Positions 1-32,638 of a DNA stretch of 64,000 nt are shown piece by piece. The first letter of the stretch is position 1; the number at the start of each line of letters is the position of its first letter. The notes beneath the pieces were generated by a model. That model was not told the origin of the DNA. It saw only the letters and a list, made by a program, of their open reading frames with translations, and did no database searches. Source of the stretch: a virus (lineage: Duplodnaviria; Caudoviricetes); IMG/VR virus record IMGVR_UViG_3300032365_000024, positions 1 through 64,000 of that record; one strand, 5' to 3'. The translations under genes were made by a program, and so were the position numbers.

Positions 1-183
1 AGCTGTTATTAAATTACACTGTCCACATGACTTAGTATGATCAGATGTAACTTTATATATTTGTATTGATTTTTCTTTTCCACAATCACATATCCATTCA
101 ACTTTCTTATGAGATCCAGATATGATATCCTGTGGAGTCTTAATTCGTAATTTACCAAACCTATCTGTATTAAATACAATCAT
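1..183 (-). CDS. 5' part of a third 60-aa Cys4-repeat protein (runs off the window start; missing from the ORF track)
   Basis: Reverse complement of 1-183 reads MIVFNTDRFGKLRIKTPQDIISGSHKKVEWICDCGKEKSIQIYKVTSDHTKSCGQCNLITA with no stop; it closely matches the repeats of 4504..5781 and 7089..7943. Confidence 0.85.
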   Translation of the reverse strand, partial: MIVFNTDRFGKLRIKTPQDIISGSHKKVEWICDCGKEKSIQIYKVTSDHTKSCGQCNLITA

Positions 184-249
184 ATATCTAATAATACATC
201 AATATTAAATATATGGATAAATAAAGTAGTTAAATCCGGTATAAAGACT

Positions 250-738
250 CTATAAGAGATATGGTGTAACCCCATCATCAAGTGTAATAGCTGCACCAAT
301 ACCAACAGGAAGACCAATTCGAGCACCACCGGGTTGGAAAGCAGCAGAACGAATCTTCGACATAATACCATACACAAATGACAATAAAACTTGTCCCGTT
401 TCCACAAGTCTTGGAGCTACAAGGGCTTGGAAATCAGCAATACATGCCGCCTTCAAAGTTGGCGCAAGTGCTATAATACCTGCCAAATTTCCAAGAGTTG
501 TAGATGATACATCCACAGTAACCGTAGTCGGATAAATGGCAAGCTTTAATGTTACTAATGGCAACGTTATTAATGTAATACCATATTTTGTTAAAATAGC
601 AATAAGAGCGGCATCGGTCGGTTTCTTAAAATATCTACTTTGTCCAATAGGTTCACTGGAGAAATTTCGTTGAGATGTGTTTTCAACGTCGGAGAGGTAA
701 AGATTCCCGATGTCTGATCGAACTATTGCAACGCGCAT
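250..738 (-). CDS. Putative virion structural protein (162 aa; start moved to ATG 738)
   Basis: AGGAG Shine-Dalgarno 7 nt before ATG 738 (MRVAIVRSDIG); N-terminus resembles 2744..3292 and 11897..12334; function inferred from context only. Confidence 0.5.
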   Translation of the reverse strand: MRVAIVRSDIGNLYLSDVENTSQRNFSSEPIGQSRYFKKPTDAALIAILTKYGITLITLPLVTLKLAIYPTTVTVDVSSTTLGNLAGIIALAPTLKAACIADFQALVAPRLVETGQVLLSFVYGIMSKIRSAAFQPGGARIGLPVGIGAAITLDDGVTPYLL

Positions 739-779
739 GTAAACTCTCCTGTTATTTAACACCCAAAGTCACAAAGAGT

Positions 780-2720
780 TCAAAAAACTTTAATCCACAT
801 AAATTTTGGTAATTCCTCAACTTTATGTAATCCGATCGATAACGCAAATTCTGATTCTTTCATTTTAACCGAACATGCTAGATCCCACAATGTTTTCTTA
901 TGTATCATTTTACAGGTTTTTGGATCAAAATAATGATATGAACATTTAGTATTTTTTAGTTGCTTCCATCCGGAATACTTATATATAGATCCAGTGTCAC
1001 CTACAGATGAATCAGCAAAACTAATTATAGCTCTTGTTTCTGGAAAATCTATTTTATATAAACTAACAAAATTTCGTATAGCAAATGATGCCATACGCTT
1101 CGCATTCACATTAGGACGAATACAAAATCTACGAAGCTCTTTGAGTTGTTTAGAACCAAATGATTGTTTTATTTCAGTGCTTACTTTTTTAAAAGTATTT
1201 TGTCTAGTGGTTCCACCAAATGTCGCTACACAAACAAGAATATTATTAATAAATCCACCATAGCATACAGAAATTGATCCAAGATTACCAAGATAGTGAT
1301 ATTGTGATAAAAATGAATGCGCGTCAGAATCATTTATACGTTTAAAAGACAAATCTTTAAGATATGGAATCTCAATAATAGATTCTGTCTCTCCTAAGAT
1401 ATGATATCCAAGAATCTTATTAATACGACCGATATGAAGTTCATGTTCCCAAATCCAAACTAAATGGTAATTAGTATTATTTTCGATAAAACTTGCTTTT
1501 GCTCTATCCTTCGGAGTTCCAGAATATCCATTTTTCTTAAAATCATGAAAATAATCTCCCTGACATTCGATAAGTAAATTTGCAGATGGTACATAAAAAT
1601 CAAATGTATATATACGATCATCAATAATCGGTACAGAATAATTTCTAATATATTTAACTTTAAATTTATCCCTAAGAATTGATTCTACAATTCTTTCAGT
1701 AAGTGGGTTACTTAATTTATCCTGAACTGACGGAATTTCTAGAACTGATGCAACACCATACTTATTAAATATCGTTTCTTTATTCTTTTTATATTTACAC
1801 AGTTTACACGTCTTCTTATACCCTCGTCTCACAAAATAATTAAATACTGTTTTAGTTGGGGCCTTACAAAAGCAACAAGGAACAATTATTGATTTGTGCG
1901 ATCCAGAACTAAGATCATTTGGAGTATATCCAAATGATTGAAAAGTTTGATCTGCATAAACGAGTTGTTGATCAATACTCTTATTTTTATCAAGCCAAAA
2001 TTCATGTTTATCTTGTACTAAATTCTGTGCAAAAAATGCGGCAGCTGTACCAGCGCATTTACCGCATATTATAGATTTTCGATCGTAATTTATATATTTT
2101 ATCAATTTATTAAATTTCTTCTGACAAAAATCACAAATAACTTCTATCTGTTTATCAGATCCAGGTGATGAAATAGATATATTTATCATATTAATTTTTC
2201 TACAACGTTCCTCATTCACAAAATTAAAATATTCATGTTTATCTAGTATTAAATTTTGTTTACTAAATGCTGCAGCTATTGGTGAACAATTGAAACAACA
2301 TGAATATTTCTCATTAGAGTGAAAAGATATTAATGTTGTTTCAAATTTAGATTTACAAAATTCACAAATAGCAACAATGTTTTTGCTGGTTTTTGCAAAA
2401 ATATTTGGTATATATCCAAATCGATTTTTTGTTTCATCAATATCAATAAATTGAACAGGTGTACTACGTTTCTTACTCAACCAAAATTTATGTTTATCAA
2501 CTTCATAATTTTGATGTAAAAATGCACGAGATACTCCGGTACATTTAATACAAGATACTGATCTTTTATTCCTATATAAATTTAAAAGTCGTACACTAAA
2601 TGAATTTTTACAAAATTCACAAATAGCAATACATAATTTATGAGATCCAAAACTTAATTCATCTGGTGAATATCCAAACCTCTCTTTCGTAAGCTCATAA
2701 CTTATAGCATTATGAATCAT
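780..2720 (-). CDS. Zinc-ribbon repeats + Vsr/DUF559-like PD-(D/E)xK endonuclease + C-terminal Mom-like GNAT domain
   Basis: Four CxxC..CxxC units (e.g. FGYSPDELSFGSHK..ICEFCK); nuclease motif FDFYVPSANLLIECQGDYFH..WIWEHE; GNAT-like motifs FLSQYHYLG, ELRRFC, IISFADSSVGDTGSIYKYSGW. Confidence 0.75.
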   Translation of the reverse strand: MIHNAISYELTKERFGYSPDELSFGSHKLCIAICEFCKNSFSVRLLNLYRNKRSVSCIKCTGVSRAFLHQNYEVDKHKFWLSKKRSTPVQFIDIDETKNRFGYIPNIFAKTSKNIVAICEFCKSKFETTLISFHSNEKYSCCFNCSPIAAAFSKQNLILDKHEYFNFVNEERCRKINMINISISSPGSDKQIEVICDFCQKKFNKLIKYINYDRKSIICGKCAGTAAAFFAQNLVQDKHEFWLDKNKSIDQQLVYADQTFQSFGYTPNDLSSGSHKSIIVPCCFCKAPTKTVFNYFVRRGYKKTCKLCKYKKNKETIFNKYGVASVLEIPSVQDKLSNPLTERIVESILRDKFKVKYIRNYSVPIIDDRIYTFDFYVPSANLLIECQGDYFHDFKKNGYSGTPKDRAKASFIENNTNYHLVWIWEHELHIGRINKILGYHILGETESIIEIPYLKDLSFKRINDSDAHSFLSQYHYLGNLGSISVCYGGFINNILVCVATFGGTTRQNTFKKVSTEIKQSFGSKQLKELRRFCIRPNVNAKRMASFAIRNFVSLYKIDFPETRAIISFADSSVGDTGSIYKYSGWKQLKNTKCSYHYFDPKTCKMIHKKTLWDLACSVKMKESEFALSIGLHKVEELPKFMWIKVF

Positions 2721-2743
2721 GAATCATAATACATTCATATTCA

Positions 2744-3292
2744 TTATAATATTCGTGTGTTTGAAAATTTAGAATTTGCTTTAAGCTTAACTGTCCATCC
2801 TGCACCTGGAGTTCCAATAGTAACAACTGCATCTGGAATTACAATAGCAATATTGGTAAATGTAGTAAATGCTGAGGATGGAATAGTTTGAGAAATGCCC
2901 GTAAGATTTGTTAAAATTGCATAAGTAACATCAGGAGATACTGACGTAAAGACTGTCCCACCTAAAGTTGTATCGGTCGCAGCATGAGACGCTGAAGTCA
3001 AAGCAGGAGCAGCAACCGTAGTGGAAGCAATACGAGCTGAGGTTACATATCCCTTTTTAACAAGACCGGCAATAGTTCCGTTATCCAATGAAAGAAGAAC
3101 CTGGTCGGTTGGAACCAAATCAATATATCCTTTTACGGAAACATCCGAAGGATTAACATACGGTACATATATCTTCTGCTTCGGATTTTGTGCAGTATGT
3201 TCAAAATTCCCCTGAGATCTATCGATCTTATCAATGAGAATTGAACGAACAAGTCGCTGCTGATTGACGACACGAACATACTGAACCGTCAT
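2744..3292 (-). CDS. Putative virion structural protein, Thr/Ala-rich beta C-terminus
   Basis: 182-aa ORF with GGAG SD; N-terminal module aligns with 11897..12334 (PTDQVLLSLDNGTIAGLVKKGYVT vs DTSEVLRSAHYGDIKKFRDKNYIT). Confidence 0.5.
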   Translation of the reverse strand: MTVQYVRVVNQQRLVRSILIDKIDRSQGNFEHTAQNPKQKIYVPYVNPSDVSVKGYIDLVPTDQVLLSLDNGTIAGLVKKGYVTSARIASTTVAAPALTSASHAATDTTLGGTVFTSVSPDVTYAILTNLTGISQTIPSSAFTTFTNIAIVIPDAVVTIGTPGAGWTVKLKANSKFSNTRIL

Positions 3293-3327
3293 GGGTGTCT
3301 CCTAAAATTTAATAGTTAATTAAAACG

Positions 3328-3963
3328 TCAGCAGATGGCCTCGTTCCGAAGAGTAAAATCTGCACTAATCTTGGTAGACGCGTTTAATCCTCTAAGAAAA
3401 ACTTGACTAAATGTTGTATGAGTTGATATAAACATAGTATGTGATGTTGATAAAGGAGATATTCTAAATTCCGATCCTGTGGCTTCAAATGCTATATATA
3501 AATCTACTCCTCCATCATTTTGAATAACAGGATTAAAACATTGTTGTGGAAGATTTAATTCAAGTGATCCTGATATACTAGCAGCTGGCGGGACTGTCCC
3601 ATTCAGTATTACTGCACGTTTAGGTTCTGTACTATATGGAAGAATTAAATGAATAGATTCATCTGCGCCAACTACACCGTTAAAATTAATTGGTGCTATA
3701 CGCATCCATATCGGTTTTAAATCATCAATATGAAAATCAATAGGACTGAAAGTGATACGAGTCTTATCACGATATTGACTCATATCAAATCTATTATTTA
3801 CAACAGATTTCGATTTATACCCGGTAGCTGGGACATTCGCAAATGTCCCAAAAACCGCATCAAAATTTGATGCAGCTTTCAGTATATATGATTTTACTCC
3901 ATACCTAACAGGCCAATACATATCTACTAGCCCAAGGCGCCGAGTCGTAGAAATTGTTCGCAT
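3328..3963 (-). CDS. Hypothetical protein, possibly beta-rich virion protein
   Basis: 211-aa ORF in co-directional run; no recognisable motif. Confidence 0.45.
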   Translation of the reverse strand: MRTISTTRRLGLVDMYWPVRYGVKSYILKAASNFDAVFGTFANVPATGYKSKSVVNNRFDMSQYRDKTRITFSPIDFHIDDLKPIWMRIAPINFNGVVGADESIHLILPYSTEPKRAVILNGTVPPAASISGSLELNLPQQCFNPVIQNDGGVDLYIAFEATGSEFRISPLSTSHTMFISTHTTFSQVFLRGLNASTKISADFTLRNEAIC

Positions 3964-4001
3964 CTCTAATAAAAAGGAATAGAAGGGCTAGGTAAAAATT
4001 A

Positions 4002-4436
4002 TTATCGATAAACTTTAATAGACTTATCCGCAGCTTTCTCTTTTTGAACCCTATCCTCAAATGTTTTTGCTGCCCCAGGTCCACGTTCCTTCAATATTTG
4101 ATTTTGAGCTTCAGCCCAACTACCAGTCTCTTTTAAAGATCCATTAATAACAGCATTTGGTGTTATTTGTTTTCCTTCCCCATATCTATCACGTTGACGT
4201 CGAGCGGCTGCCTCCGATGCTTTTTCTCGCTGTTTCTTTATACGTTCACCTTTAGAAGGCCACGACCCAGATGGACCATCGCGTAAAACAATATTTGGAA
4301 TACTTGGAATCCATTCATAATTACATATACTACCACATTTATCACAAATTGGATGATTTTCTTTAAATCCATTTATTGAATGATCTTCCTCTTGAAGATT
4401 ATCACAAACAGTGCACCTATACCCATAAATTGGCAT
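4002..4436 (-). CDS. FmdB-family zinc-ribbon protein
   Basis: N-terminus MPIYGYRCTVC..HPICDKCG matches the MPIYEYxCxxC..CPxCG pattern, followed by a GSW-containing segment. Confidence 0.7.
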   Translation of the reverse strand: MPIYGYRCTVCDNLQEEDHSINGFKENHPICDKCGSICNYEWIPSIPNIVLRDGPSGSWPSKGERIKKQREKASEAAARRQRDRYGEGKQITPNAVINGSLKETGSWAEAQNQILKERGPGAAKTFEDRVQKEKAADKSIKVYR

Positions 4437-4503
4437 ATTCTACCTTACAGTGTAAATTAATTAGTCTTTTTTAAATTAATTAAAAAGAAAATTAATTTAA
4501 AGT

Positions 4504-5781
4504 ATGAACAGTATAATCACTACAAATGAAATAGCTATTAAAAAATTTGGAAAATTACGAATTGAAATTCCTCAAAATATAACATTTGGATCAAATAAGA
4601 AAGTCATTTGGATATGTGATTGCGGAAGAAAAACAACCACAAAAATAAATCTTGTTTTATCCGGTCAGTCTACATCATGTGGACAATGTAGTCAAATTAC
4701 TGCAAATAAAATAATTTCTAAAAAATTTGGAAAATTACGAATTAAAATACCACAAGATATTTTTCCATGTTCCAACAAGAAAGTAGAATGGATATGTGAT
4801 TGTGGAAAAGAAAAATTAATTCAAATAGATAACGTTATTTCAGGTAACACTACTTCTTGTGGACAGTGTAATCAGATTTCTGCTACAAATATTGCTATGA
4901 AAAAATTTGGTAAGTTAAGAATTAAAATTCCGCAAGATATTCTTCCAGGATCTCATAAGAAAATTGAATGGATTTGTGATTGCGGAAGAGAAATAAATTC
5001 AAAAATAAATCATGTTTTATCAAATAGATCAATGTCATGTGGGCAATGCAATTTAATATGCGCTAATGAAATAATTACTAGAAAATTTGGTAAATTGCAA
5101 ATTAAGAATCCGCAGGATATTTTTCCTAGATCTGAAAAGAAAATATGGTGGGTATGTAATTGCGGACAAGAAAAATTAATTAAAATAACTGATGTAGTAT
5201 GTGGAAATACTAAATCATGTGGTCAATGTAGTAAATTAATTAAAAATTGGTATATTCAGAATAGAGAACAAATTCGTTCTTTAAAATGTCCAATAAAACC
5301 AAAAGACTTTATTCTTGGTAAAATAACTCCGCTTGAAACAATAAAAAATGTTAATAATCCGTTCAAAGCTATCTGTCCAGCATGTAAATCTATTTACTAT
5401 CCAAGATTGAGTGATATTAAACGAGGCTTATCACTTACCTGCGGATGCTCAACTCATCGTATTTCAATGCCATGTACAGAAATTACTGAATATATTAAAT
5501 CTCTTGGGTGTGAAACAATTAATGAATTTAAAGTAAATAAACTGGCTTATGATATATTTGTCCCACAGAAGAATCTACTTATTGAATTTCAAGGTTCTAA
5601 GTGGCATTCATTTGAAAAAGTAAAAGAAAGGGACTTGAAAAAGAAACAAAATGCTATTCAAATGGGGTATCAATTTATGGAAATATTAGAGAAAGACTGG
5701 AAAACTAATAAAGTTGAAATTGAAAATATTATAAAAAATTATTTAAAATACTATTTCACTTGTTGTTCTTCATCACTATAA
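4504..5781 (+). CDS. Free-standing endonuclease: 4 x 60-aa Cys4 repeats + extra CxxC + Vsr/DUF559-like nuclease
   Basis: Repeats KKFGKLRIxxPQDIxxGSxKKxxWICDCG..SCGQC; C-terminal YDIFVPQKNLLIEFQGSKWH..EILEKDW; oriented against the surrounding genes. Confidence 0.8.
   Translation: MNSIITTNEIAIKKFGKLRIEIPQNITFGSNKKVIWICDCGRKTTTKINLVLSGQSTSCGQCSQITANKIISKKFGKLRIKIPQDIFPCSNKKVEWICDCGKEKLIQIDNVISGNTTSCGQCNQISATNIAMKKFGKLRIKIPQDILPGSHKKIEWICDCGREINSKINHVLSNRSMSCGQCNLICANEIITRKFGKLQIKNPQDIFPRSEKKIWWVCNCGQEKLIKITDVVCGNTKSCGQCSKLIKNWYIQNREQIRSLKCPIKPKDFILGKITPLETIKNVNNPFKAICPACKSIYYPRLSDIKRGLSLTCGCSTHRISMPCTEITEYIKSLGCETINEFKVNKLAYDIFVPQKNLLIEFQGSKWHSFEKVKERDLKKKQNAIQMGYQFMEILEKDWKTNKVEIENIIKNYLKYYFTCCSSSL
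4540..5229 (+). repeat. Four tandem ~180-nt coding repeats (60-aa Cys4 units)
   Basis: Repeated DNA words such as aaatttggtaa, tggatatgtgattg(c/t)gga, tcatgtggacaatg spaced 180 nt apart. Confidence 0.9.
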
Positions 5782-7052
5782 TCATATGTAACTTCAGGCT
5801 CTTCTTCTTCTTCAGAAGGCTCTTCTTCCTCTTCAGAAGGCTCTTCTTCAACATACTCTTCAGATTTATCTTCTCTTTTTTCAAGAGGAGGTCCTTCAGC
5901 ATATTCATTTTTGTCATAATCAAATAAAATATCTTCGCCCTCTGGACCTTCAATATAAATAGGAACTTCGTCGTAATCGTAAACTTGTTCTTGTTCCTGC
6001 TCTTCTGAAGATTCTCCGGTTTCTTCCTCAGTAGGTTCTTCAAAATTTATATCAATATCAATTTCTTCTGCTTTTTCAAGCGGTATTTGAACTGTCCCCT
6101 CTAAACGATCCCATTCTTTATCCACTTCTTCCAGTAGATCTGAATCGTCCATCTCCCAATTTTCATCAATAACTTCTTGAATAAAATGATCAAGACGTTT
6201 TAAAACTGCATATGCATGTTTACAAAGCCAATATTGACGTTCAGGATCTCGAACATCTGGTGGTGTAGCTCTTCCATATGGCTGACCAAGCATAAATTTA
6301 TTTGTTTTTGCATTAAACTCTGGTCCATTATAACGCCAAAATGGACAATCACATGATAAAGCTACATCATCAATATCAGATAAAGCTGCACGTACAGTTT
6401 TAGCACCATTTCCTGCATCTACTGAAAATGTAAATATACGCGTTTTTTTATCATATGAAACTAATGAAACAGTGCAAGCATGTGCATTTTTCTTAATTTT
6501 ATCAGGAGTATGTGGAATAACTATTTCAGGCTTAAGTGCCAACTTCATAATCATAACAGGATATGATTTTATTGATGAATGACGAACAGGAGATTCGTCT
6601 GTTCTATATGGATATTTTTGATATTGAGTTATATCAACATCTTCCATGAATGTTGTTTCTGTTGGAACCTGAATATTTTCATCATAATTATATTCTTGAT
6701 GATGTGTTATTTCATCAGCACAATCTATATCAAAAATAGATCCTGGATCCGAAGATGGAATTGTTGGCTGATTATCATCATAAACAAAAGTTTTGGTTCC
6801 AAATAATTCTGCATCTTCAGTATCACCACCAGTCGGTATAGCTCCATCTGCATAATGCATAGATGCGACACGCGAAGCAATTTCTACGGATGTTGTTGCA
6901 GTTTCAAGCTTAATAGGAATAAGGAAAAGTGGTTTCAAATTATCAGGAATAGCCGCCGCAAATGATATTATATCATGATATATATCTTGACATTTGTAAG
7001 CATAAAGAGCGGATTCAGATAAGATAAAACCATCCGGAATTAAATCATTCAT
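5751..7052 (-). CDS. SWIM-type zinc-finger protein with very acidic termini
   Basis: LSCDCPFW..YWLCKHAYAV fits CxCx(n)CxH; C-terminal EEEPSEEEEEPSEEEEEPE repeat. Confidence 0.6.
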   Translation of the reverse strand: MNDLIPDGFILSESALYAYKCQDIYHDIISFAAAIPDNLKPLFLIPIKLETATTSVEIASRVASMHYADGAIPTGGDTEDAELFGTKTFVYDDNQPTIPSSDPGSIFDIDCADEITHHQEYNYDENIQVPTETTFMEDVDITQYQKYPYRTDESPVRHSSIKSYPVMIMKLALKPEIVIPHTPDKIKKNAHACTVSLVSYDKKTRIFTFSVDAGNGAKTVRAALSDIDDVALSCDCPFWRYNGPEFNAKTNKFMLGQPYGRATPPDVRDPERQYWLCKHAYAVLKRLDHFIQEVIDENWEMDDSDLLEEVDKEWDRLEGTVQIPLEKAEEIDIDINFEEPTEEETGESSEEQEQEQVYDYDEVPIYIEGPEGEDILFDYDKNEYAEGPPLEKREDKSEEYVEEEPSEEEEEPSEEEEEPEVTYDYSDEEQQVK

Positions 7053-7088
7053 TTATTCTAAATATCATAATAAAAATGTATTTTATAT

Positions 7089-7943
7089 ATGATATTTTTA
7101 GCTAAAAATATCGCTACTAAAAAGTTTGGTAAATTACGAATTAAGACTCCACAGGATATTACATCTGGATCTCATAAGAAAGTTGAATGGATATGTGATT
7201 GTGGAAAAGAAAAATCAATACAAATAAAATTAGTTTTATCAGGTAATACTAAGTCATGTGGACAATGTAATTTAATAACAGCTTCAGAAATTATTACTAA
7301 AAAATTTGGTAAACTACAAATTAAGACACCACAAGATATTAAACCTGGATCTTATAAAAAGATCACTTGGATATGCAACTGCGGACGAGAAAAACTAATA
7401 CCGATACACATAGTTTTATCAGGTGATACTAAATCGTGTGGACAATGTAATCAAATTTCTGCTAAAGAAATTGCTACCAGGAAATTTGGTAAATTACGAA
7501 TTAAAATACCACAGGATATAACATCAGGATCTGCTAAGAAAATTAAATGGATATGCGATTGCGGACGAGAAAAACTAATTCAAATAAGTTGTGTACTATC
7601 GAATCAAACAACATCATGTGGACAATGTAATCTCATTTCTGCCGCAGAAATTGCTATTAAAAAATTTGGTAAATTACGAATTAAAACTCCTCAAGATATT
7701 CTTCCTGGATCCAATAAGAAAATTTGGTGGATTTGTGACTGTGGAAAAGAAAAATTAATATCGATATGTTATGTTATATATGGTGAATCTACTTCTTGTG
7801 GACATTGTAGTGAATTAGTCAAAAATTGGTATATTCAAAATAGAGAACATATTCGTTCGTTAAAATGTCCAATAGAACCAAAAGATTTTATCCCAGGAGG
7901 AATAATTCCATTAGAAACAATAAATAGATCTCATATATTATAG
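7089..7943 (+). CDS. Repeat-only derivative of the Cys4-repeat endonuclease (nuclease domain deleted)
   Basis: Four 60-aa repeats and linker KNWYIQNREHIRSLKCPI match 4504..5781; stops at ETINRSHIL*. Confidence 0.8.
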   Translation: MIFLAKNIATKKFGKLRIKTPQDITSGSHKKVEWICDCGKEKSIQIKLVLSGNTKSCGQCNLITASEIITKKFGKLQIKTPQDIKPGSYKKITWICNCGREKLIPIHIVLSGDTKSCGQCNQISAKEIATRKFGKLRIKIPQDITSGSAKKIKWICDCGREKLIQISCVLSNQTTSCGQCNLISAAEIAIKKFGKLRIKTPQDILPGSNKKIWWICDCGKEKLISICYVIYGESTSCGHCSELVKNWYIQNREHIRSLKCPIEPKDFIPGGIIPLETINRSHIL

Positions 7944-7995
7944 AAATATTAGAAAAAGACTGGATAAACAATAAATCTGAAATTGAAAATAATAT
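7941..7995 (+). pseudogene. Out-of-frame relic of the endonuclease C-terminal tail
   Basis: gaaatattagaaaaagactgg..gaaattgaaaat encodes EILEKDW..EIEN, matching the end of 4504..5781 (from 5680). Confidence 0.8.
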
Positions 7996-8005
7996 GAAAT
8001 TAAAA

Positions 8006-8401
8006 TTATTCATCATATGAAAAAACTTTATTATCATCTAAAGTTTCCCATTTTTCTTCAAATTTACTAGTTCGTCGTGGAATTTGAAGACGAACATCTT
8101 CTAATACACGTTCAAGAGCATCAACTTTTTCCGGACGTAAAACTTGACGCATCTCTTCATAATCTATTTTATTAACTGCCATTCCTGCAGCTTGTAAAGC
8201 ACGCTCGAGTTTTAAAATAATATTTGGAATAGCATAAATAATATCTCCAGCAACAGCATATAAATGATCTTTTTGTGGACTTCCATTAATAATTTCAAGT
8301 CCACGTACAATATATCCTTTCAATTGATCGCAACGTAAACGTGCGTCAGAAAGTTCCTCTTGAATATATATCGTTGCTCCAGCAGTCTTATAATGCATCA
8401 T
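8006..8401 (-). CDS. Hypothetical alpha-helical protein (candidate virion protein)
   Basis: 131-aa ORF; N-terminal HYKTA-G resembles the motif enriched in head genes. Confidence 0.5.
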   Translation of the reverse strand: MMHYKTAGATIYIQEELSDARLRCDQLKGYIVRGLEIINGSPQKDHLYAVAGDIIYAIPNIILKLERALQAAGMAVNKIDYEEMRQVLRPEKVDALERVLEDVRLQIPRRTSKFEEKWETLDDNKVFSYDE

Positions 8402-16337: not shown

Positions 16338-18653
16338 CTAAAAACCAAATATGTGAATATACTGAGAACGACGTAAATGTTTAACTATACCGAATTTATA
16401 TTGCATTTTATGACTTAGTCCAGCTTTTTTAAGAGCAAACATGAATGGCTCTATAAACGAAAATTTATGTGTATCAAATATATGAAGAGCAAGTACACCA
16501 CCATAATTCAATAATTTAGCGCAAAGCATAGAGAATGGTTGCACAAAAGTTTCTTGCCATTCAGCAAAAGAACAATTAGGAACTACTCCGTTATAGTTTT
16601 CTGTATTAAAATACGGAGGGCCTGCCAAAATCATATCAAATTTATCATTACTATTTCTCATGTATTCAAGTGTATCACCATGAACTGCATTCATATGACA
16701 CCCACCCATAAATTGACAATCTTCTAATATGCGACGAATAGCATTAACACTAGGTTCCTGAAGATCTATTCCGACATACTTTTTTACATATTTATTTAAT
16801 GCACAAGCCAAAGCTCTACTACACCAACCTGCAAATGGATCTATTACTAATCTCGGTTTATACTTATTTAATAATGCCGCTGCACCTGACGGACGAAAAT
16901 GACCTGGAGCTGATATCATTTCCATTACCCGCCTAAAAATAATATTACATGAGATTGGTTGATCTCTTGAAAGAGTGCTCATAATCGCTTTCCGAACAAT
17001 ATCACTATTTTTCCATGCTTCAACACATGAAATCTGTCCATAATGATTAGAAGTAAATCTATGAGGGCAGATTTCATCTAAGTAAGTCAGCCCATTTTGT
17101 TTAAACGGAAGAGAACCATCATCTTTTGGAAAGCACCTGCATAATTCTTCTTGAAGATCATTTAGATATAAATTAACTGGTTGATCAAGTTTGCGAATCG
17201 GTATATCTGATCCAACAACAAAATCAACAACTTCATCGACAAATTTTAATTTATCATCATCACTTAATAATTTATACTTTGAAGTTGGAAATCTATTAGA
17301 CAGCAAATCTTCAGAATACGATAAATCATTTCGACAAGAAGGTGGTAGCTTTCGAGTCATTCGAGAGTGAATATATGGTTTTATTATTTCAAAAAATTTA
17401 TCGCGAGATGAAGCTCCTCGAATTTTGAGAAGTTTAATATTTTTTCTATTAACATGATAGAATAATATATTAAATCTAATAGTTAAAGCCTCGCAAATTT
17501 CATCATAATTTGCTGCCGGAAAATACATAGCGATAGCTGGGTATCCAGAATCATATGTACCATCATCCATATACCAAACTGCCAAAGACAAATCACTTAA
17601 ATTTTTAAAAATATCTATACTAGGATTTTTACAACCATCATAGCCAAATTTTTCTCGTAAAGATGGATCATAAAACTTCCGATACCAATCAGAAAGAGTG
17701 GATGTCCTTATTGAGGTATAAGAAACAAAATCAAATAACCTACCATCAACGTATTTACGAGTTTGACGAATAACTGGTTTCAAGCATATCAACTTCTCAG
17801 CACTCCATTTAGTATATTCACTGTCAGTAATTTTATGACCTACCTTAAAATACGCAGCTTTGTTATCAACTACAGAAATTAAACTTCCATCTCCCAATAT
17901 ATGTCCTATCATTACATCAATAGCTTCTTGAGAAATATCAATTGGAAGATAAATTAAAGAAGATCTATCTAAATTTAATTTACGAAATTTACTTTTAATA
18001 GTACCTATTCCTACACCATATTCTTCAGCAAGATCTCGATAAGAAACCCTATTCACAATAGCATGTTTGATTTTATCCTCATCAAGAGAATTTATACTCA
18101 ATTTTCCATTGAGTATTCTTCTACTATCTTCCGACACCGTCGGTAGTCCAAGTTTAACTCTCAGATATCTTACGTAACTCGGTAAAAATCCAGTTAACTT
18201 AGATATCTGAACATCAGATTTAACTCCATCGTACAACTCTTTAATTCTGTTTAAATCATCAGAACCGGTATTCTTACTATTTTGATGCACTCCATTAATA
18301 GTAATAAATTTTTGTAAAACATCATATGAATATTTCGCACTACATTGTATACAATATCTACGAGAACAAGCTAAAGATGTGTCAATAAATTCAAATCCAC
18401 ACAGGTTACAGTGTTTATTCCGTCGAGGATTTTTTATCGCTATACTAGGATCAACATCATTTTTTGAAGATATCTTATTTATTCTACAAGAAATACATTC
18501 CTTAGAAGTTCTTCTAGGAGAATCATCATAATATTTATTTCCACAATTACAAACTTTTATTCTTCCTTTATGCTTTCTCTTATCATAAAATCTACCTTTA
18601 AACTCATCTGGAATATCAACTCCGTCAATTTGATCAACATAAATTCGTTTCAT
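16338..18653 (-). CDS. LAGLIDADG endonuclease fused to an N6A/N4C-type DNA methyltransferase domain
   Basis: Two CxxC ribbons and two HTH-like segments; LAGLIDADG motifs IDVMIGHILGDGSL and LSLAVWYMDDGT; SAM-binding VIDPFAGW, GID, and motif IV variant ILAGPPYF. Confidence 0.8.
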   Translation of the reverse strand: MKRIYVDQIDGVDIPDEFKGRFYDKRKHKGRIKVCNCGNKYYDDSPRRTSKECISCRINKISSKNDVDPSIAIKNPRRNKHCNLCGFEFIDTSLACSRRYCIQCSAKYSYDVLQKFITINGVHQNSKNTGSDDLNRIKELYDGVKSDVQISKLTGFLPSYVRYLRVKLGLPTVSEDSRRILNGKLSINSLDEDKIKHAIVNRVSYRDLAEEYGVGIGTIKSKFRKLNLDRSSLIYLPIDISQEAIDVMIGHILGDGSLISVVDNKAAYFKVGHKITDSEYTKWSAEKLICLKPVIRQTRKYVDGRLFDFVSYTSIRTSTLSDWYRKFYDPSLREKFGYDGCKNPSIDIFKNLSDLSLAVWYMDDGTYDSGYPAIAMYFPAANYDEICEALTIRFNILFYHVNRKNIKLLKIRGASSRDKFFEIIKPYIHSRMTRKLPPSCRNDLSYSEDLLSNRFPTSKYKLLSDDDKLKFVDEVVDFVVGSDIPIRKLDQPVNLYLNDLQEELCRCFPKDDGSLPFKQNGLTYLDEICPHRFTSNHYGQISCVEAWKNSDIVRKAIMSTLSRDQPISCNIIFRRVMEMISAPGHFRPSGAAALLNKYKPRLVIDPFAGWCSRALACALNKYVKKYVGIDLQEPSVNAIRRILEDCQFMGGCHMNAVHGDTLEYMRNSNDKFDMILAGPPYFNTENYNGVVPNCSFAEWQETFVQPFSMLCAKLLNYGGVLALHIFDTHKFSFIEPFMFALKKAGLSHKMQYKFGIVKHLRRSQYIHIFGF

Positions 18654-22074: not shown

Positions 22075-24837
22075 TTAGTTATTAGCGATGGATGCAATTT
22101 GACCTTTATGAGCAAAGAACTTTTGTTCTGATGCAGTCAAATCACGACCCATACATACTTTGCAGGATGCAAAGTATGAAATTCTGGTTGGAAAATTATT
22201 AAGTGGTCCAACCTGCATGGCAACTTTATAGAGTTTAGATGAAAAACTACGACCATGTATATGATCCTCAATCCATGAAAGAACTACCAAATCTTGCGGA
22301 GTTAGATGGGCACGTTTAATAGCAGAAATGCCACCAATGTGGACTATTGTCCAAGCACGCGTAGCCCAACGTTGCAGACGTATTTTTCCAGGGAATTTAT
22401 TTATTAATGCTTGATTAAATTCAGAAGCCCGAACTAAATTATCGTTTGGAGAACTTATATCAGCTGGAGCAATAGCTGGCGCAACAACACCAACATCTTC
22501 AGGCTTCGGAGCGAGCTTCTTTTCAAGGTTTTTAATTATCGTTTCTAATAGTTGCTCTTGCGCCTTTTCAATTAAATTATTTATTGAATTCTCTGTCCCT
22601 TCAGATGTCCCTTCAGATGTCCCTTCAGATAAATTATCTTGTACCTGTTCACCCTGACTATTCATATCAGTATCTTCCGAAGGATTAATAGGTATTTCAG
22701 AATCATCTTCTCCTTGTGCTTTTCGTATAGAAGCTGCCTTCTTAATACCATCTATTTCAGGAGTATTCTTACGAATGTCATAAACAACCTTTGCCTCATT
22801 TAATTTAGTAGCAACTTGCTCTTGATTCGGATTCAAAATATTACGACGTACTGCACCACGAAAAGCAGGACTACGTACCCAACTCGCTTCAATAAACTGA
22901 TTTGAATTTGGTACTGAAACATGTCCTATCAATTCAGAAATTGGAGTTTCAATACCTTCTTCATCAGTAAATTTATTTCCTTTTCCGTCATATAAAATGC
23001 ATGGACAAAGTTGAGCATCATCAGATGCAATGTTTCCACATTTTGTACAAATAGTAAAAAGTGATATACATCCCATCGACATTGACGCCATAGTACCTGA
23101 TAAAATATCTGATACAAGTTGCTTATGCTTACGATCAGTAGCAACTAAGATATCAATATAACATGTCTTTCCAAGATCTCGAGCTATAGCATCAACAATA
23201 AATCCCTTTGATAATTCAGGAAGTTGAATATGTTCGCAATTGAACACTTGTACAGTACCATTAACTATGTATGAATGATCATCCTCAACCTCTAAGTTAT
23301 AAACTTTGCCATCATAATTATCAGATTCAATTTTATTAATAAATGTTATTCTTTTACCATCTAAGAACTTTAAATCTCCAGCTGCAACACTTCTTTTTTG
23401 TTGCTTATGTAGCGTAGTATAATTACAAAGCTTTTTACTACTTTGAACATCAAAATGCAACAAATAAGCTTGATGCTGACATGTAATTATATGTTCTGAT
23501 CCATCAGCAAATAAAATAGTATTTTTATCACCAACTTTTGAATCATGTTTTACGATAAATCCCGATAATCCAACACTAGATCCAAGATACTGAATTTGCT
23601 GTAATAATGATAATGAAACCGAACAAGCACGAAATCGTTGCGTAATTTTATGAATGTCAGCATCACCACTGACATATGCTCCGATCATATTTAATACATC
23701 GTCATGACTAGCAGAATTAATCCATTCAAGAGATAACTGTTTCTGATGAGCTAAAGCACCACATATATTATATAAAGCAAGCGCCATATCTGTATTGTGC
23801 ACTTTAATATAAACACAATGATCAGAACACTTTGACATCTCTATTGACGGAACAGCTTTCGGATAACATGCGCGTACACAATCTAAAATTTGTTGTATTA
23901 AATCTTTCTCGTGAGCTCCAACTGTAAATATAGTTGTTCGTGGCTTATGATTACCATAAGCAAAACATCCTTCTGATAAATAAAATCCGATTAATTTAGC
24001 AAACCGTACACTATCACGCTCTTTGGATGAACCATTTCCTAATTTAGGAACAGGAGCAAATAGTATAGCTCGATGTTCAAGTTCAGAAGCCGAAACACGA
24101 GATATTTCTAATGACGAATCTTTGTTTCTGATTTTGCGACCACAGTCAACACAATATTTTCTTTCAATCCTCTTCAAATAGCTAGAAGGTCTTTTTATTG
24201 AATCAAGTTTAATACCGCATGATATACATGTAGTTCTATCTAATCTTGCAAATGGATGATTTGGTGTACAAACAATTGGCTGTTTATGATGACCAGCATA
24301 AATAAGCTTAACTTCACCTTGATAGTCACGTACATGTTTATGAACAACTTTTTTAGGTAAACCAGATCCACCTATTACTTCATCACCAACATTAATATCA
24401 CTAATTTTACGTAAAGTACCATCAGACATAAGTATGTTAGTATCAGGCGTAAAACAATAGTTGTGGGCCCCAATAAATGTACGATAAGTTGATAAAAGCT
24501 GAGAACGTTCCCATGAATCGTTGTTGTTATTAATAATATCAAAACACTCTGGCTTAATACGAAAATCGGGCCAACGTACATCAATTTGAACACCCCGATT
24601 CAATACACGTCCTGTTTTAACACCCTTAGGCGCATAACAATCAACAGATGCAACTATTGTAGCATGCGACAATAAATATTGATTGGGATCACATTTTCTT
24701 AAAACTGTTTTTGCTATGCGGTGGATATGATCCTTCGGGACCGCACCTTCATGTTGATTACGTAATGAATCCATCCAGTATTCAAATTCAATACCAGGAT
24801 TGGATACAATGGCACTTGCATAATGACGCCTAGACAT
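22075..24837 (-). CDS. Prohead maturation protease with one intein (about 514 aa after splicing)
   Basis: Spliced junction GAHNY|CEHIQ supplies a candidate catalytic His; SMSMGC a candidate catalytic Ser; located between portal and scaffold genes; SEGT x3 repeat at 22594-22629. Confidence 0.75.
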   Translation of the reverse strand: MSRRHYASAIVSNPGIEFEYWMDSLRNQHEGAVPKDHIHRIAKTVLRKCDPNQYLLSHATIVASVDCYAPKGVKTGRVLNRGVQIDVRWPDFRIKPECFDIINNNNDSWERSQLLSTYRTFIGAHNYCFTPDTNILMSDGTLRKISDINVGDEVIGGSGLPKKVVHKHVRDYQGEVKLIYAGHHKQPIVCTPNHPFARLDRTTCISCGIKLDSIKRPSSYLKRIERKYCVDCGRKIRNKDSSLEISRVSASELEHRAILFAPVPKLGNGSSKERDSVRFAKLIGFYLSEGCFAYGNHKPRTTIFTVGAHEKDLIQQILDCVRACYPKAVPSIEMSKCSDHCVYIKVHNTDMALALYNICGALAHQKQLSLEWINSASHDDVLNMIGAYVSGDADIHKITQRFRACSVSLSLLQQIQYLGSSVGLSGFIVKHDSKVGDKNTILFADGSEHIITCQHQAYLLHFDVQSSKKLCNYTTLHKQQKRSVAAGDLKFLDGKRITFINKIESDNYDGKVYNLEVEDDHSYIVNGTVQVFNCEHIQLPELSKGFIVDAIARDLGKTCYIDILVATDRKHKQLVSDILSGTMASMSMGCISLFTICTKCGNIASDDAQLCPCILYDGKGNKFTDEEGIETPISELIGHVSVPNSNQFIEASWVRSPAFRGAVRRNILNPNQEQVATKLNEAKVVYDIRKNTPEIDGIKKAASIRKAQGEDDSEIPINPSEDTDMNSQGEQVQDNLSEGTSEGTSEGTENSINNLIEKAQEQLLETIIKNLEKKLAPKPEDVGVVAPAIAPADISSPNDNLVRASEFNQALINKFPGKIRLQRWATRAWTIVHIGGISAIKRAHLTPQDLVVLSWIEDHIHGRSFSSKLYKVAMQVGPLNNFPTRISYFASCKVCMGRDLTASEQKFFAHKGQIASIANN
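23239..24456 (-). mobile_element. Intein (406 aa) with LAGLIDADG domain in the protease
   Basis: CFTPDT..; block B CTPNHPF; LIGFYLSEG and MIGAYVSGD motifs; VYNLEVEDDHSYIVNG..VFN|C. Confidence 0.92.
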
Positions 24838-28168: not shown

Positions 28169-31100
28169 TTAAGATTCTCTATCTTTATCAAAACGTCCTT
28201 CACCTCTAATTATAGTAAGACCAGAACTCTTAGCAAGTTTTTCTAAAACGTCTGTCTTTGTTGCTGCATCATCACCAGCCTTAGATAAAATAGCACGGAC
28301 AAATTCATTATAATTTGCATCATTCGGTGTAAATAAATCGGTCTTTAATTGATCTAATGCCTCATCTGCATCAATATTTAATAACTCAAGAATAAATCTA
28401 ATTGGTAAAGCTCCCTTTTGGAAAAGATTAAACATAAAGTCTTGAAGTTCTGTATTATCACGTAATGCCAATCGTGTAAATTGGAGTTTTGGATACAATA
28501 AAACTTTATTTCCGAATTCGTCTATTTCAAAGAAACCTTTCTTTTCAGCTACTGGTGCAAATAAATATTGTTCAACAAATTCTGCTATAGTTTCACGATA
28601 TAATAGATACATTGTATTCATTACGTCTAAGTGAATACGTTCACCAGAATATGAAGATTCTCCCGTTAGCATGGATTCCGTAATGCGTAAACCTATAAAT
28701 AATAATTTATTTGTGATGTCATATTCGGTACTTAAATCAAGTAAACGATCACGAGATCCAACTTCATCCCAATGAACTTCGAAGTTAGTAACAACAGTAA
28801 AATCAGGATCAATTATAGCTTGTTCAATTTGATCACGCAAAGCTTCAACATCAACTTCAGACATTTTATCCGCCCAAACAACCCGCTTCGGGGTCATAGC
28901 CCGTGAAGCAATGCTTGTTTGTGCCTGTCGAAGTTTGTCTTGATATGTAAGTGTACGTAAGCAATTATATGTATGTGTAAAATTAGCAAAGAAAGAATGA
29001 TCTTCCGATACATTCATACTATATACTAAGCCATCATATTTTTGATTACTAATTGATTTAATAGGTAAATATAAATAATTATTATATATAATATGCTTCT
29101 TTCCAGAATCTGATCGTCTTTGAATATCTATACTATTTAATTTTACGGATCTGCCATCTTTAAGAACTAATAAATCGTTAGAACATCCGAATACTATAGA
29201 ATACTGAGCTTTGGCGTCTGATATTTCTCCATTTGCTTGTTTAACTCTTCTTTTTTCTTTAAATCTTCTAGAAGGAGATAAACCAATGCCATAGGATAAA
29301 ATTTGTAACTGATCAATAAGGTCTTTAGTTGTCATACAAATTGATGCATCAATATATTCTGATTGATTTTTATACTTACTAACCCATCCATCTGAATCAA
29401 ATAACCCATTCAGTAGTCCTATTTTAAATCCCTCTGGTGCAGAAAATACCCATTCAGGTAAATGTTTATCTTTCTTATTATGACCAAAATTTCTGCCAAG
29501 CCAACGATTAAACCAATCTGTAGTTATACTAAACCTGTTTATTGTATTCTGATGGGATATTTCACCAATACTTAAACCAATATTGTTTATAATTTGTTGA
29601 ATATACGCAACTGATTTAACACTATTTATAGTATTGCGACAATAACAAATACCAGATGGTCCATATAATGTAGGAGTTTTTCTATGTTCTATCCATCCAT
29701 CTCCTAAGAAATATCCAATTAAATACCCAAATTCTTTTGTCAATTTAAGTTCTGACGGACATTCTTGTTCTTCAATTTTTTGATATAATTTCAAAGTATC
29801 TATTTTAGCTGGTCGGAAAAGACGTCCTTTGACTTTATACTTTGATCTTTCATTTATAACTATTGGAGTCTCATATCCAATAAAAGCAAGATCTCGTATA
29901 ATGGCTCTGTAAACAGAATCTCCCATACCCATAAAAATAGCTCTAAAATCTTCTGAAACTAAAACAATCTCTTCCTTTAGAGAACTAATCCAATTTGCTA
30001 CTTGTGATAATAAATTTGTCCGATTAGTTCTTTGTGGATTTTCATCCATCCATGAATGTCTCAGGATAAGTTTATCTCCTCTATACTCTGGACATATATC
30101 TACTGATCGAATATCTTTAGAATCACGATGTTCGTATGTCCATTTTTCCTCAGAAAAGAATTTATATAAATCTATTTTATCAATTGTATGATCTGATTTA
30201 ATAGAAGGAGTTCTAATGAAATCATTATCTTTAATATCTTTAGCTAAAATCTGTACTTCTTGATTATCTCTTAATACTGATATTTTATGATCTGGAGTAC
30301 ATCGGATAGAATCATAAAGTTTATGAAAATTTAATTCAACAATATCACCTGAATATTGTCTTGATCCATATTCAAATTTTCTCCAATTCCCTGACCCGCC
30401 AAGTACCTCATCATATTCAGGATCAAGCGTCTCAATCGGGACTTGTAAGATCTGTCCATCACGGCGAACAGTAACTTCAGTTCCAGGAAGATGGCATCTT
30501 TCCAATAATGAAATACCACGGTCATCATATGCTGATTTCTTATGTGCTAAATGATAACAAAATGATGAACATAAAAAGTCATCATATGGACTAACATTAA
30601 GTGGAATAGGTTGGCCACTCAATAAGTTTTCACGAATTTGTTCAGGTATATCCTCAGCGATTTTTATTGCATCTGGATCGCTCTGTTCCATCGCCTTCAT
30701 AACGACGTTTCTATCCTTCGTAGAAGGAATGAGCTCCATTTTAGCGCGATTAGTATATTGAAAAACCTCTAATTTTATCTGTTCTGGTGGAAGAATTTGT
30801 AGACGTTCCCAACCCCTATAATTTTTAGCTACATATTCACGAATATTTACTTGCTGTTCGGTTTCTGACTTTGGTGTGTATTTACGTTCCTTCTTACGAA
30901 CAGCACGACCAGCATAATCTATTTCCCCAACCTCTTCCTCTTTAATATCATGTAAAAGACTCTCAGGGATATCCTCTGTCATATCATGATCTTCAGCAAA
31001 AATAAAAACATTTCCATGCAACCAATACTCATGTGTCGCATCATATAAGGTTTGAAATAATCTAACCCTATTACACATTTGTGTATAAAAATGTAAGATT

Positions 31101-32638
31101 TGTTTATTTTTAGCCGTATCCTTCCCTTTTGGAAGAGAAAGACGAATCTTTGACATTGGGACATCGGTGTGGAAGTCTATTGCCGCACCGACAATAGGAT
31201 GTGTATTATGAGTGGCTAATCCATAAGCTATGTAACTCTTACCATCCCCATCACAATCAACTTCAAAATTATATACTGGACCTTCATATGAAATGGCCTC
31301 AAGTTCTTCAATTCGATGCAAAAAACCATATTCTGATTTAACTACATATACTCGAGTTGAACTAGCCGTATAACTACCAGAGACAAAATTAGCATATTTA
31401 CTAAATACGTCATAATATCTACCAGGAAATGATACATAATGGACAGTTCCTGGTGGAAAGATGTGGCCATTTATATTTCTTTCAGGCTTGTCATACTTAG
31501 AGTTATGTGATGGGATTCTCAAACGCAGCAGCATATTGTGAACTTGAGAAGCCAAATCCTCACTCATAGTATCAATAGTATATGAATTATCAGTAAAACA
31601 CCCATCCCCATTCCAGTATGCTCCGAGGAATTCAAGCATCTGCTCGGAATTAGCATGAACTATATCTTCATGAAGGTGTTTTTCATGAGAACCACAACCG
31701 ACATATTTATTACAAAATTTTGCAAACCCAACCCCGTCACATACAACCTTTGTTGTATGTCTCACTTCATCAGTATAAATACGAGCTTTTTTACCAAAGG
31801 CCCTGAAATACATATCCTGTATTTCCACGGCAATAGTTGTAGCTTCATCCAGTGACAGTGAAAATTCAACCCCCCGAACTACACCGGCGCTACGATATGC
31901 AAACGATCCCTCAGCTGCATAATAACCAAGAAGACGTAGCTTGTCGCGTGACAAGCCGCAATCTTTAGATCCACCCATCCATGGAGCTACAATATAGTCT
32001 CCAACTTGGAGATCCTTGACATAAATATATTCAGGCTTTATGAATGCAGTATCAAAGCATTTTGTTCTACAACAAATAGAATTTTCACCTGACTTGCAAG
32101 CATCTGGAACCCAACGACAATCAACATCTTCCGCATGTAACACATAGAATGGGTGGTTACCAGTCGCAAAAATCTCTGATTGAACACCACGAACCTTCAT
32201 CCGAACAATATTATCAGATATGTCGCACTTAAATAACTTGGAAACTTTTACTTGTTCCCCAAGTCCGTTAGGAACTGAGTCACCAACCGTTATCTCTTCT
32301 ATAGGAACCGTCGTTCCATCCCACGTAGTAACCGGAGCCCCCGGTGGAAAACAAGTATACCAAAAACGAAATAATTCACGCTTCTCTCGATCAGATTGAG
32401 GAAGTTCTAAGAAGTCTGTGGATAATTGTGGACTGTAAAAATTAGAATCCGCATCACGAATTGATGCAGATGAATTGCCGAAATCATTATTAAAAGCAGC
32501 AATTCTAATGGATTGAGATGCTTCTCGTCTTGCAAGTTTTTCAAGCTTAGTAAGTCTACTACGTTTACGCGGCTGCGTATCAACCGTAGCAACAGGCATT
32601 GCTTGAACTTCTGGTTGGATTGCGACCTTTTTCTTCAT
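28169..32638 (-). CDS. Portal protein with two inteins (about 595 aa after splicing)
   Basis: Spliced FRFWYT|THPIVGAAIDFHTDVP..HEYWLHGNVF..ILPPE..GISLLER|CLRTL..QTSIASRAMTP..LFIGLRIT pattern; lies between terminase and protease. Confidence 0.8.
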   Translation of the reverse strand: MKKKVAIQPEVQAMPVATVDTQPRKRSRLTKLEKLARREASQSIRIAAFNNDFGNSSASIRDADSNFYSPQLSTDFLELPQSDREKRELFRFWYTCFPPGAPVTTWDGTTVPIEEITVGDSVPNGLGEQVKVSKLFKCDISDNIVRMKVRGVQSEIFATGNHPFYVLHAEDVDCRWVPDACKSGENSICCRTKCFDTAFIKPEYIYVKDLQVGDYIVAPWMGGSKDCGLSRDKLRLLGYYAAEGSFAYRSAGVVRGVEFSLSLDEATTIAVEIQDMYFRAFGKKARIYTDEVRHTTKVVCDGVGFAKFCNKYVGCGSHEKHLHEDIVHANSEQMLEFLGAYWNGDGCFTDNSYTIDTMSEDLASQVHNMLLRLRIPSHNSKYDKPERNINGHIFPPGTVHYVSFPGRYYDVFSKYANFVSGSYTASSTRVYVVKSEYGFLHRIEELEAISYEGPVYNFEVDCDGDGKSYIAYGLATHNTHPIVGAAIDFHTDVPMSKIRLSLPKGKDTAKNKQILHFYTQMCNRVRLFQTLYDATHEYWLHGNVFIFAEDHDMTEDIPESLLHDIKEEEVGEIDYAGRAVRKKERKYTPKSETEQQVNIREYVAKNYRGWERLQILPPEQIKLEVFQYTNRAKMELIPSTKDRNVVMKAMEQSDPDAIKIAEDIPEQIRENLLSGQPIPLNVSPYDDFLCSSFCYHLAHKKSAYDDRGISLLERCHLPGTEVTVRRDGQILQVPIETLDPEYDEVLGGSGNWRKFEYGSRQYSGDIVELNFHKLYDSIRCTPDHKISVLRDNQEVQILAKDIKDNDFIRTPSIKSDHTIDKIDLYKFFSEEKWTYEHRDSKDIRSVDICPEYRGDKLILRHSWMDENPQRTNRTNLLSQVANWISSLKEEIVLVSEDFRAIFMGMGDSVYRAIIRDLAFIGYETPIVINERSKYKVKGRLFRPAKIDTLKLYQKIEEQECPSELKLTKEFGYLIGYFLGDGWIEHRKTPTLYGPSGICYCRNTINSVKSVAYIQQIINNIGLSIGEISHQNTINRFSITTDWFNRWLGRNFGHNKKDKHLPEWVFSAPEGFKIGLLNGLFDSDGWVSKYKNQSEYIDASICMTTKDLIDQLQILSYGIGLSPSRRFKEKRRVKQANGEISDAKAQYSIVFGCSNDLLVLKDGRSVKLNSIDIQRRSDSGKKHIIYNNYLYLPIKSISNQKYDGLVYSMNVSEDHSFFANFTHTYNCLRTLTYQDKLRQAQTSIASRAMTPKRVVWADKMSEVDVEALRDQIEQAIIDPDFTVVTNFEVHWDEVGSRDRLLDLSTEYDITNKLLFIGLRITESMLTGESSYSGERIHLDVMNTMYLLYRETIAEFVEQYLFAPVAEKKGFFEIDEFGNKVLLYPKLQFTRLALRDNTELQDFMFNLFQKGALPIRFILELLNIDADEALDQLKTDLFTPNDANYNEFVRAILSKAGDDAATKTDVLEKLAKSSGLTIIRGEGRFDKDRES
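28964..30496 (-). mobile_element. Portal intein 2 (511 aa, LAGLIDADG)
   Basis: CHLPGT..; block B CTPDHKI; LIGYFLGDG and LLNGLFDSDG; VYSMNVSEDHSFFAN..TYN|C. Confidence 0.92.
31205..32353 (-). mobile_element. Portal intein 1 (383 aa, LAGLIDADG)
   Basis: CFPPGA..; block B ATGNHPF; LLGYYAAEG and FLGAYWNGDG; VYNFEVD..LATHN|T. Confidence 0.92.

Follow-up and report, generated by a model that had tools for sequence, protein, structure and literature searches.

The 64,000-nucleotide stretch analysed here (the window) covers the initial 64 kb of the 72,349-bp IMG/VR virus record IMGVR_UViG_3300032365_000024, from a tailed phage of the Caudoviricetes, and near its start lies a gene, B, that we consider probably to be a free-standing homing endonuclease gene, in whose product an array of zinc modules tethers a nuclease while a few positions per module pick the target. 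Three relatives of B, the genes A, C and D, share the first 8 kb of the window with it (Table 1). While this gene architecture is already published, three elements are new here: a contrast between orthologues and paralogues at the variable module positions, evidence of empty insertion sites, and a decayed copy that is still followed by a remnant of its nuclease. In the mechanism that we propose, the C-terminal EDxHD/Vsr-like domain of B would cut DNA, and four DUF4379 Cys4 modules together with a Cys cluster in the linker would tether the protein to a long target close to where the gene is inserted. A, C and D would be paralogues from a family that multiplied inside the phage lineage, and the loss of the nuclease from C by internal deletion would represent a decay stage of the homing cycle. 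Members of the family would retain the zinc scaffold and the nuclease and differ at positions 15, 19, 35, 37, 38 and 43, and also at 44, which would be the positions that choose the target. We infer that these variable residues contact bases, that each module may read a sub-site of a few base pairs much as C2H2 fingers do, and that B homes.

Nine 60-amino-acid (aa) units without gaps, one in A, four in B and four in C, make up the arrays, exactly as a sequence-only reading of this DNA had described them, and the nearly invariant framework noted there is confirmed by 21 of 60 columns that do not vary across the nine repeats, CxC and CxxC among them. The arrays match the Pfam family DUF4379 (PF14311), which we take from its Pfam label to be a probable treble clef zinc finger, with whole-protein scores of 86 bits for B, 83.1 for C and 32.6 for A against a gathering cut-off of 24.5. 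With the zinc-ligand Cys columns (CxC...CxxC) invariant in sets of 9, 74 and 512 repeats, the units are predicted Cys4 zinc modules. Pairwise identity among the nine is 47-83% in protein and 65-89% in DNA (88.5% in DNA between the A module and module 1 of C); because the invariant residues are encoded by several synonymous codons, the framework appears to be kept by purifying selection and not by recent copying. In the AlphaFold2 model of B (predicted local distance difference test, pLDDT, 86.6) each module runs strand-strand-strand-short helix, and the linker helix takes up residues 242-258. Both in this model and in that of a single module (pLDDT 84.5), positions 33 and 35 belong to a strand, and the short helix after it starts with positions 37/38, where the sequence-only reading had placed its variable residue pair. 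The linker Cys cluster of B is invariant, or nearly so, in the alignment of homologues.

The modelled nuclease of B superposes on the catalytic domain of I-Bth0305I (3r3p) with a Foldseek template modelling (TM) score of 0.79-0.80 and a root-mean-square deviation of 2.6-2.7 over 95 columns (E 3e-4), further Foldseek matches being Vsr (1vsr/1cw0) and 3hrl, and a profile built from 18 homologues matches 3r3p at E 4.9e-4. Across these 18 homologues E341, D350, E361 and H368 are invariant and D377 is nearly so. The HMMER alignment to 3r3p, whose crystal carries D196A and H213A, pairs D350, H368 and D377 of B with D196, H213 and D222 of I-Bth0305I; E341, which lies beyond that alignment, corresponds to E170 by manual assignment. 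The roles of the EDxHD catalytic residues have been described for I-Bth0305I (PMC3239194). Judged from sequence and model together, the C-terminus of B is a predicted EDxHD/Vsr-like nuclease that adopts the fold of I-Bth0305I and has the complete set of five catalytic residues, and the fold and profile matches to 3r3p and Vsr thus agree with the Vsr-like PD-(D/E)xK end that had been assigned to the intact copy. PF18741 is listed in the precomputed Pfam tags for B and most of its homologues, the C-terminus has further matches in PHROG families that carry an HNH or homing-endonuclease annotation, and tblastn recovers phage genes annotated as Hef-like homing endonucleases. Domain plan and nuclease fold together uphold the earlier suggestion that the zinc-module arrays are carried on a nuclease of the homing-endonuclease kind.

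Variation within the modules is concentrated at few positions. The nine different 37/38 pairs listed in the sequence-only reading (NL, DN, NH, TD, KL, HI, SC, CY and YK) hold without exception: with 8 residue types apiece, positions 37 and 38 both have an entropy of 2.95 bits, against 2.42 bits in the next column. The further variation noted there at 15-16, 19, 35 and 43-45 is likewise present, and position 23 varies too. In the close subfamily, where DNA was available for 71 repeats, the most variable columns are 37 (3.61 bits), 38 (3.38) and 43 (2.99), the rest reaching at most 2.75 bits. Over 512 repeats from 120 proteins, columns 37 (3.86 bits), 35 (3.71) and 38 (3.61) lead, followed by 10, 33, 43, 15 and 23 at 3.3-3.4 bits, so that the pair does stand among the top columns of a large alignment, as the earlier reading would have it, but with only a modest excess. 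The 71 repeats hold 48 distinct 37/38 pairs, built from 16 and 13 residue types, where 54.8 +/- 2.4 distinct pairs would be expected under independent columns; repeats with the same pair are no more alike outside it (nucleotide identity 0.745 against 0.741), so that recent copying alone does not explain shared pairs. Module signatures also recur, with 79 cases in which modules of different proteins share at least five of six variable residues, against 10.8 expected. Of these recurrences 31 fall at different array positions, examples of recurrence being the match of C module 3 to the first module of a five-module paralogue and that between a Vsr-type protein and a GIY-YIG-fused one. This recurrence is compatible with module reuse, some of the offset cases being orthologues with an undetected module.

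The evidence that bears most directly on what the variable positions do comes from comparing relatives at the same and at different insertion sites. With groups set solely by at least 65% identity of the non-repeat C-terminal part, and with modules compared in register, identity at position 37 is 0.06 among same-contig paralogues and 0.68 within orthologue-like groups. The corresponding values are 0.13 and 0.76 at position 38, 0.16 and 0.82 at position 43, 0.19 and 0.89 at position 19, 0.23 and 0.72 at position 15, and 0.15 and 0.47 at position 35, the framework itself giving 0.67 and 0.71; positions 44 and 52 show a like contrast. Two syntenic pairs extend this pattern, their variable positions being conserved at least as well as the framework. 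P0088 and P0091 come from phages of different samples and adjoin the same DUF2201 and AAA genes; their 24 variable codons comprise 11 identical codons, 11 synonymous differences and 2 amino-acid differences, and the other repeat codons 86, 65 and 43, respectively. P0061 and P0075, nuclease-only proteins with homologous flanking genes, keep 20 of 30 variable residues while their framework is identical at 120 of 234 positions (51%). Unrelated repeats match at only ~0.07-0.18 per variable position. Residues kept by purifying selection at a shared insertion site and scrambled at differing sites form the pattern of specificity residues and argue against plain lack of constraint; as far as an alignment can tell, the variable positions thus follow the pattern of specificity determinants and not that of neutral drift. 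Six or more positions per module behave in these comparisons as specificity determinants, which is nearer to C2H2-finger logic than to a two-residue code. Three other treatments of the same data were set aside: nearest-pair estimates of omega, the ratio of nonsynonymous to synonymous rates (dN/dS), of 2.4-6 were biased, the pairs having been picked on the same synonymous sites; per-site change counts by parsimony were saturated; and an orthologue grouping that used the variable positions themselves was circular.

Several observations weigh against our reading of B. No family member has known DNA binding, cleavage or a known target, and the profile and fold searches of the PDB found no solved structure or protein–DNA complex that resembles the module. 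The Pfam profile REase_MTES_1575 scores 36.4 bits on B (E 5.7e-9), just under its cut-off of 38.2. By maximum likelihood the global omega is 0.14 and positions 38, 35, 37 and 43 reach 1.17, 0.82, 0.80 and 0.62; no site is significantly above 1, leaving positive selection unproven. When synonymous sites are held out, nearest pairs yield an estimate of ~1.7 for positions 37/38, near saturation, and 0.19 for the framework. In terms of the dN/dS comparison that the sequence-only reading had proposed, then, conservation in syntenic orthologues speaks for the positions, while codon analysis alone does not decide between drift and function. Furthermore, P0088/P0091 and the other orthologue-like groups defined by their C-terminal part are Mom-fused and only 40-45% identical to B, and no orthologue turned up for A, B or C themselves; P0061/P0075, the other syntenic pair, is nuclease-only like B and 41-44% identical to it.

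A bolder view of the same data, which we put forward tentatively and hold to be rather unlikely as a whole, is that DUF4379 modules form a recombinable DNA-reading system in which 6-9 residues per module (15, 19, 35, 37, 38, 43, 44 and a few more) act largely independently of neighbouring modules, so that phages could retarget the nuclease by mutation or by shuffling. If recognition is indeed modular, the family would add a fourth to the protein scaffolds with which DNA can be targeted programmably, with hundreds of natural paralogues of known insertion site usable for decoding it. If it is not, the locus is still a clear, if unexceptional, example of how homing endonuclease genes spread and decay in a huge phage. 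Either way, dozens of paralogues with a near-identical scaffold and nuclease, and with a handful of differing positions per module that are kept in syntenic orthologues, amount to a natural experiment, and the question of whether DNA is read through defined residues becomes tractable from this locus and its relatives.

We consider it improbable that the variable positions are an unconstrained surface, with the conserved basic framework binding DNA and specificity residing in the nuclease, in the linker finger or nowhere. An omega near 1, and not significantly above it, at positions 35, 37 and 38 is what such a surface would show, and no structure with a DNA contact was found. The two amino-acid changes against 11 synonymous ones in the 24 variable codons of P0088/P0091, the 20 of 30 residues kept by P0061/P0075 over a framework that is only half identical, and the low match between unrelated repeats all speak against it.

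Less probable still is the code suggested by the sequence-only reading, in which the 37/38 pair of each module would specify a base in the manner of TALE repeats and arrays could be read and rewritten module by module. The pair is the most variable in the 9- and 71-repeat sets, with 37 leading the 512, and identical pairs recur somewhat above independence. It also has the largest gap between within-orthologue and between-class identity, in groups that were partly set from those very positions. Yet 48 pairs in 71 repeats are no small alphabet, positions 15, 19, 35, 43 and 44 show the same contrast of paralogues and orthologues so that variation is not confined to the pair, position 35 is as variable as 37/38 in the wide alignment, and a 60-aa zinc domain more likely covers several base pairs. 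What stands of the idea that 37/38 set base specificity is that these positions are kept in syntenic orthologues; a two-residue code, with at least four further positions behaving alike, does not. C2H2 zinc-finger arrays, as in zinc-finger nucleases (ZFN), and TALE repeats are tandem modules on a fixed scaffold with few variable residues, fused to nucleases or usable so. The modules described here differ from both in their Cys4 ligands, in their 60-aa unit of three strands and a short helix and in the lack of a small residue alphabet. As an identity for the modules, a C2H2 array (Cys2His2, beta-beta-alpha, ~28 aa) was ruled out.

That the variable residues serve inhibitor escape, the choice of a protein partner or RNA binding instead is very unlikely: the only proteins that resemble the module in structure, all of them weakly, are kinetoplastid mitoribosomal proteins bound to rRNA, but these matches fall far below significance, and the choice of a DNA target accords better with three facts: the array is fused to a nuclease that acts on DNA, the insertions are junction-specific, and same-site orthologues conserve the residues. 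When the PDB was searched with a sequence profile of the repeat, only chance hits at E about 1 came up, and fold searches with the single-module model gave none above Z 5 and none at Foldseek E <= 0.001, nor any protein–DNA analogue. The recurring mitoribosomal neighbours are 6sga_Fd, 6yxx_E2, 6hiv_DS and 7ane_at (Z 3.6-4.9, Foldseek E about 1), of which 6yxx_E2 headed the whole-protein Foldseek list for B as well.

The mobility of B and C is suggested by their absence from a relative. G001, a related record of 182.7 kb, holds homologues of the flanking 182-, 211-, 144-, 433-, 131- and 335-aa genes in the same order and at 34-57% identity. Where the window carries B, only 14 bp separate the homologues of the 144-aa and 433-aa genes in G001, and where it carries C, the homologues of the 433-aa and 131-aa genes overlap; both genes are absent from these matching junctions. 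As the junctions hold neither gene, we take B and C to be putative free-standing mobile homing endonuclease genes, and their presence or absence at exact gene junctions is, going by gene order, the typical behaviour of such genes. A homologue of D lies in G001 at another gene junction, and a 585-aa gene at a place similar to that of A is not recognisable as its orthologue. B and C stand on the plus strand amid a block of minus-strand genes, that is, against the local direction. Each insertion lies directly beside a conserved gene, around its stop codon: B and the convergent 433-aa gene share 31 nucleotides at their 3' ends (5751..5781), and the nuclease remnant after C likewise overlaps the end of the 131-aa gene (8006..8020).

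C ends 37 residues past its fourth module, and the remnant behind it matches B residues 393-411 at 14 of 19 residues. Because this out-of-frame nuclease tail directly follows the C stop codon, C appears to have lost ~110 nuclease codons by internal deletion, and from its sequence it looks decayed, not domesticated. The sequence-only reading had overlooked this remnant, as well as D, the fourth and divergent relative, which scores 22.8 bits for DUF4379, under the 24.5 cut-off, and 70.9 bits for Pfam Mom, and of which residues 37-635 are spanned by phrog_559.

Table 1. Genes A, B, C and D and their parts, in positions of the window
Feature	Coordinates	Strand	Description
Gene A	1..183	-	N-terminal 61 aa of a paralogue with the first zinc module; reading frame cut off by the contig end at base 1 of the record
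Gene D	780..2720	-	646 aa: four divergent Cys4 modules, predicted nuclease of the same type, C-terminal Mom-like domain (~882..1352)
Gene B	4504..5781	+	intact, 425 aa: four predicted zinc modules, linker, nuclease
B modules 1-4	4531-4710, 4711-4890, 4891-5070, 5071-5250	+	each with CxC...CxxC
B linker	5251..5466	+	long helix plus fifth Cys cluster (C291, C294, C313, C315)
B nuclease domain, predicted EDxHD/Vsr-like	5467..5748	+	E341, D350, Q363, H368, D377
Gene C	7089..7943	+	284-aa paralogue: four intact zinc modules, start of linker, no nuclease
C modules 1-4	7110-7289, 7290-7469, 7470-7649, 7650-7829	+	
C nuclease remnant	7943..8020	+	out of frame, last 25 codons of the nuclease domain (EILEKDW...)

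The family to which these genes belong is widespread, with matches of E up to 0.001 in 8,151 cluster representatives, and a near-length search gave 304 relatives, many of them on shared contigs. Two single-protein scans of viral contigs yielded 2 loci in one case and none in the other. The contig L003 has six copies within 21 kb, five of them complete and one present only as its end, with three paralogous zinc-array nuclease genes standing head to tail at L003:1894-5834 with gaps of 16-181 bp, and other contigs of the same sample hold two to four copies each. The family is thus a multi-copy swarm within a phage lineage. Among homologues the number of modules per array ranges from 3 to 6. The 120 closest homologues have a nuclease-only tail in 42 cases and a longer one in 65, and all four of the long-tailed proteins that were scanned carry a Mom/GNAT-like domain, below the Pfam cut-off in three. 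A triple fusion of zinc array, Vsr-like nuclease and C-terminal Mom/GNAT-like domain occurs in D, P0088, P0038, L012:4264-6021 and L012:9986-11851; tail lengths suggest the same plan in 65 of the 120 closest homologues, with Pfam support that is mostly under the cut-off. A domain that modifies DNA, when joined to a homing nuclease, could shield the element's own genome from cleavage, and we found no description of the zinc-array/Vsr-like nuclease/Mom combination in the literature. In P0118, a 472-aa metagenomic protein, the DUF4379 array lies behind an N-terminal GIY-YIG nuclease instead of a Vsr-like one, and one of its modules agrees with one from a Vsr-type protein at 5 of 6 variable residues, which suggests that the array acts as a portable targeting unit.

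The closest known systems are phage homing endonucleases with 3-5 CapR/DUF4379/DUF723-like domains of ~60 aa and a C-terminal EDxHD/Vsr-like nuclease (NAR 2025, PMC12350094), which, in the parts of that report available to us, resemble B in domain plan, module size, nuclease type and phage origin and are likewise proposed to home. The examples in those parts lie inside group I and II introns, whereas the genes described here are free-standing at gene junctions and form a multi-copy swarm. The same parts of PMC12350094 describe the modules as likely DNA-binding and make no mention of specificity positions. I-Bth0305I and Hef, of the EDxHD family (PMC3239194), share with B the nuclease fold and the five catalytic residues, but I-Bth0305I binds DNA through NUMOD/helix-turn-helix motifs, where B has its zinc-module array. 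CapR, a distant Cys4 relative from a Vibrio PLE satellite, binds DNA sequence-specifically and requires its cysteines to do so (PMC8096241), and it is this relative that provides the experimental support for DNA binding. Together with the ICP1 T5orf172 homing endonucleases (PMC8096241), it parallels the present genes in having a homing-endonuclease Cys4 zinc module and offers a precedent for a nuclease-less derivative. In contrast to the present modules, that system has a reversed cysteine order (CxxC...CxC) and a GIY-YIG-like nuclease partner, and Pfam CapR found no match on the window proteins at E up to 0.1. Putative restriction endonucleases of the Marseilleviridae (PMC5513546) combine four DUF4379 domains with a restriction-endonuclease-like domain as B does; these are giant viruses of amoebae, and the likeness is by description, not by sequence.

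The genome in which the genes lie is large: CheckV puts the completeness of the record at 17%, which implies a genome of ~400 kb. Its first 8 kb are a run of small minus-strand genes broken up by A, D, B and C, and DUF4379 matches occur at ten places across the record. Megablast of positions 1-8000 against deposited phages returned no matches, and a scan for promoters and terminators gave 19 sites where 23 were expected, which is no enrichment. Several classes of selfish element heavily colonise this genome. Three large minus-strand genes carry intein splicing/Hint domains, and two of these three carry LAGLIDADG domains as well. The selfish-element genes, all on the minus strand, lie at 22075..24837, 28169..32638, 33337..38433 and 16338..18653, the fourth being a 771-aa open reading frame with a LAGLIDADG_2 domain beside weak, sub-threshold methyltransferase-like matches. 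Finally, a 282-aa open reading frame on the minus strand at 11003..11851 matches more than 20 overlapping places in the first 2.3 kb of G001 (L012:1-2300), and its predicted product is an internally repetitive protein.

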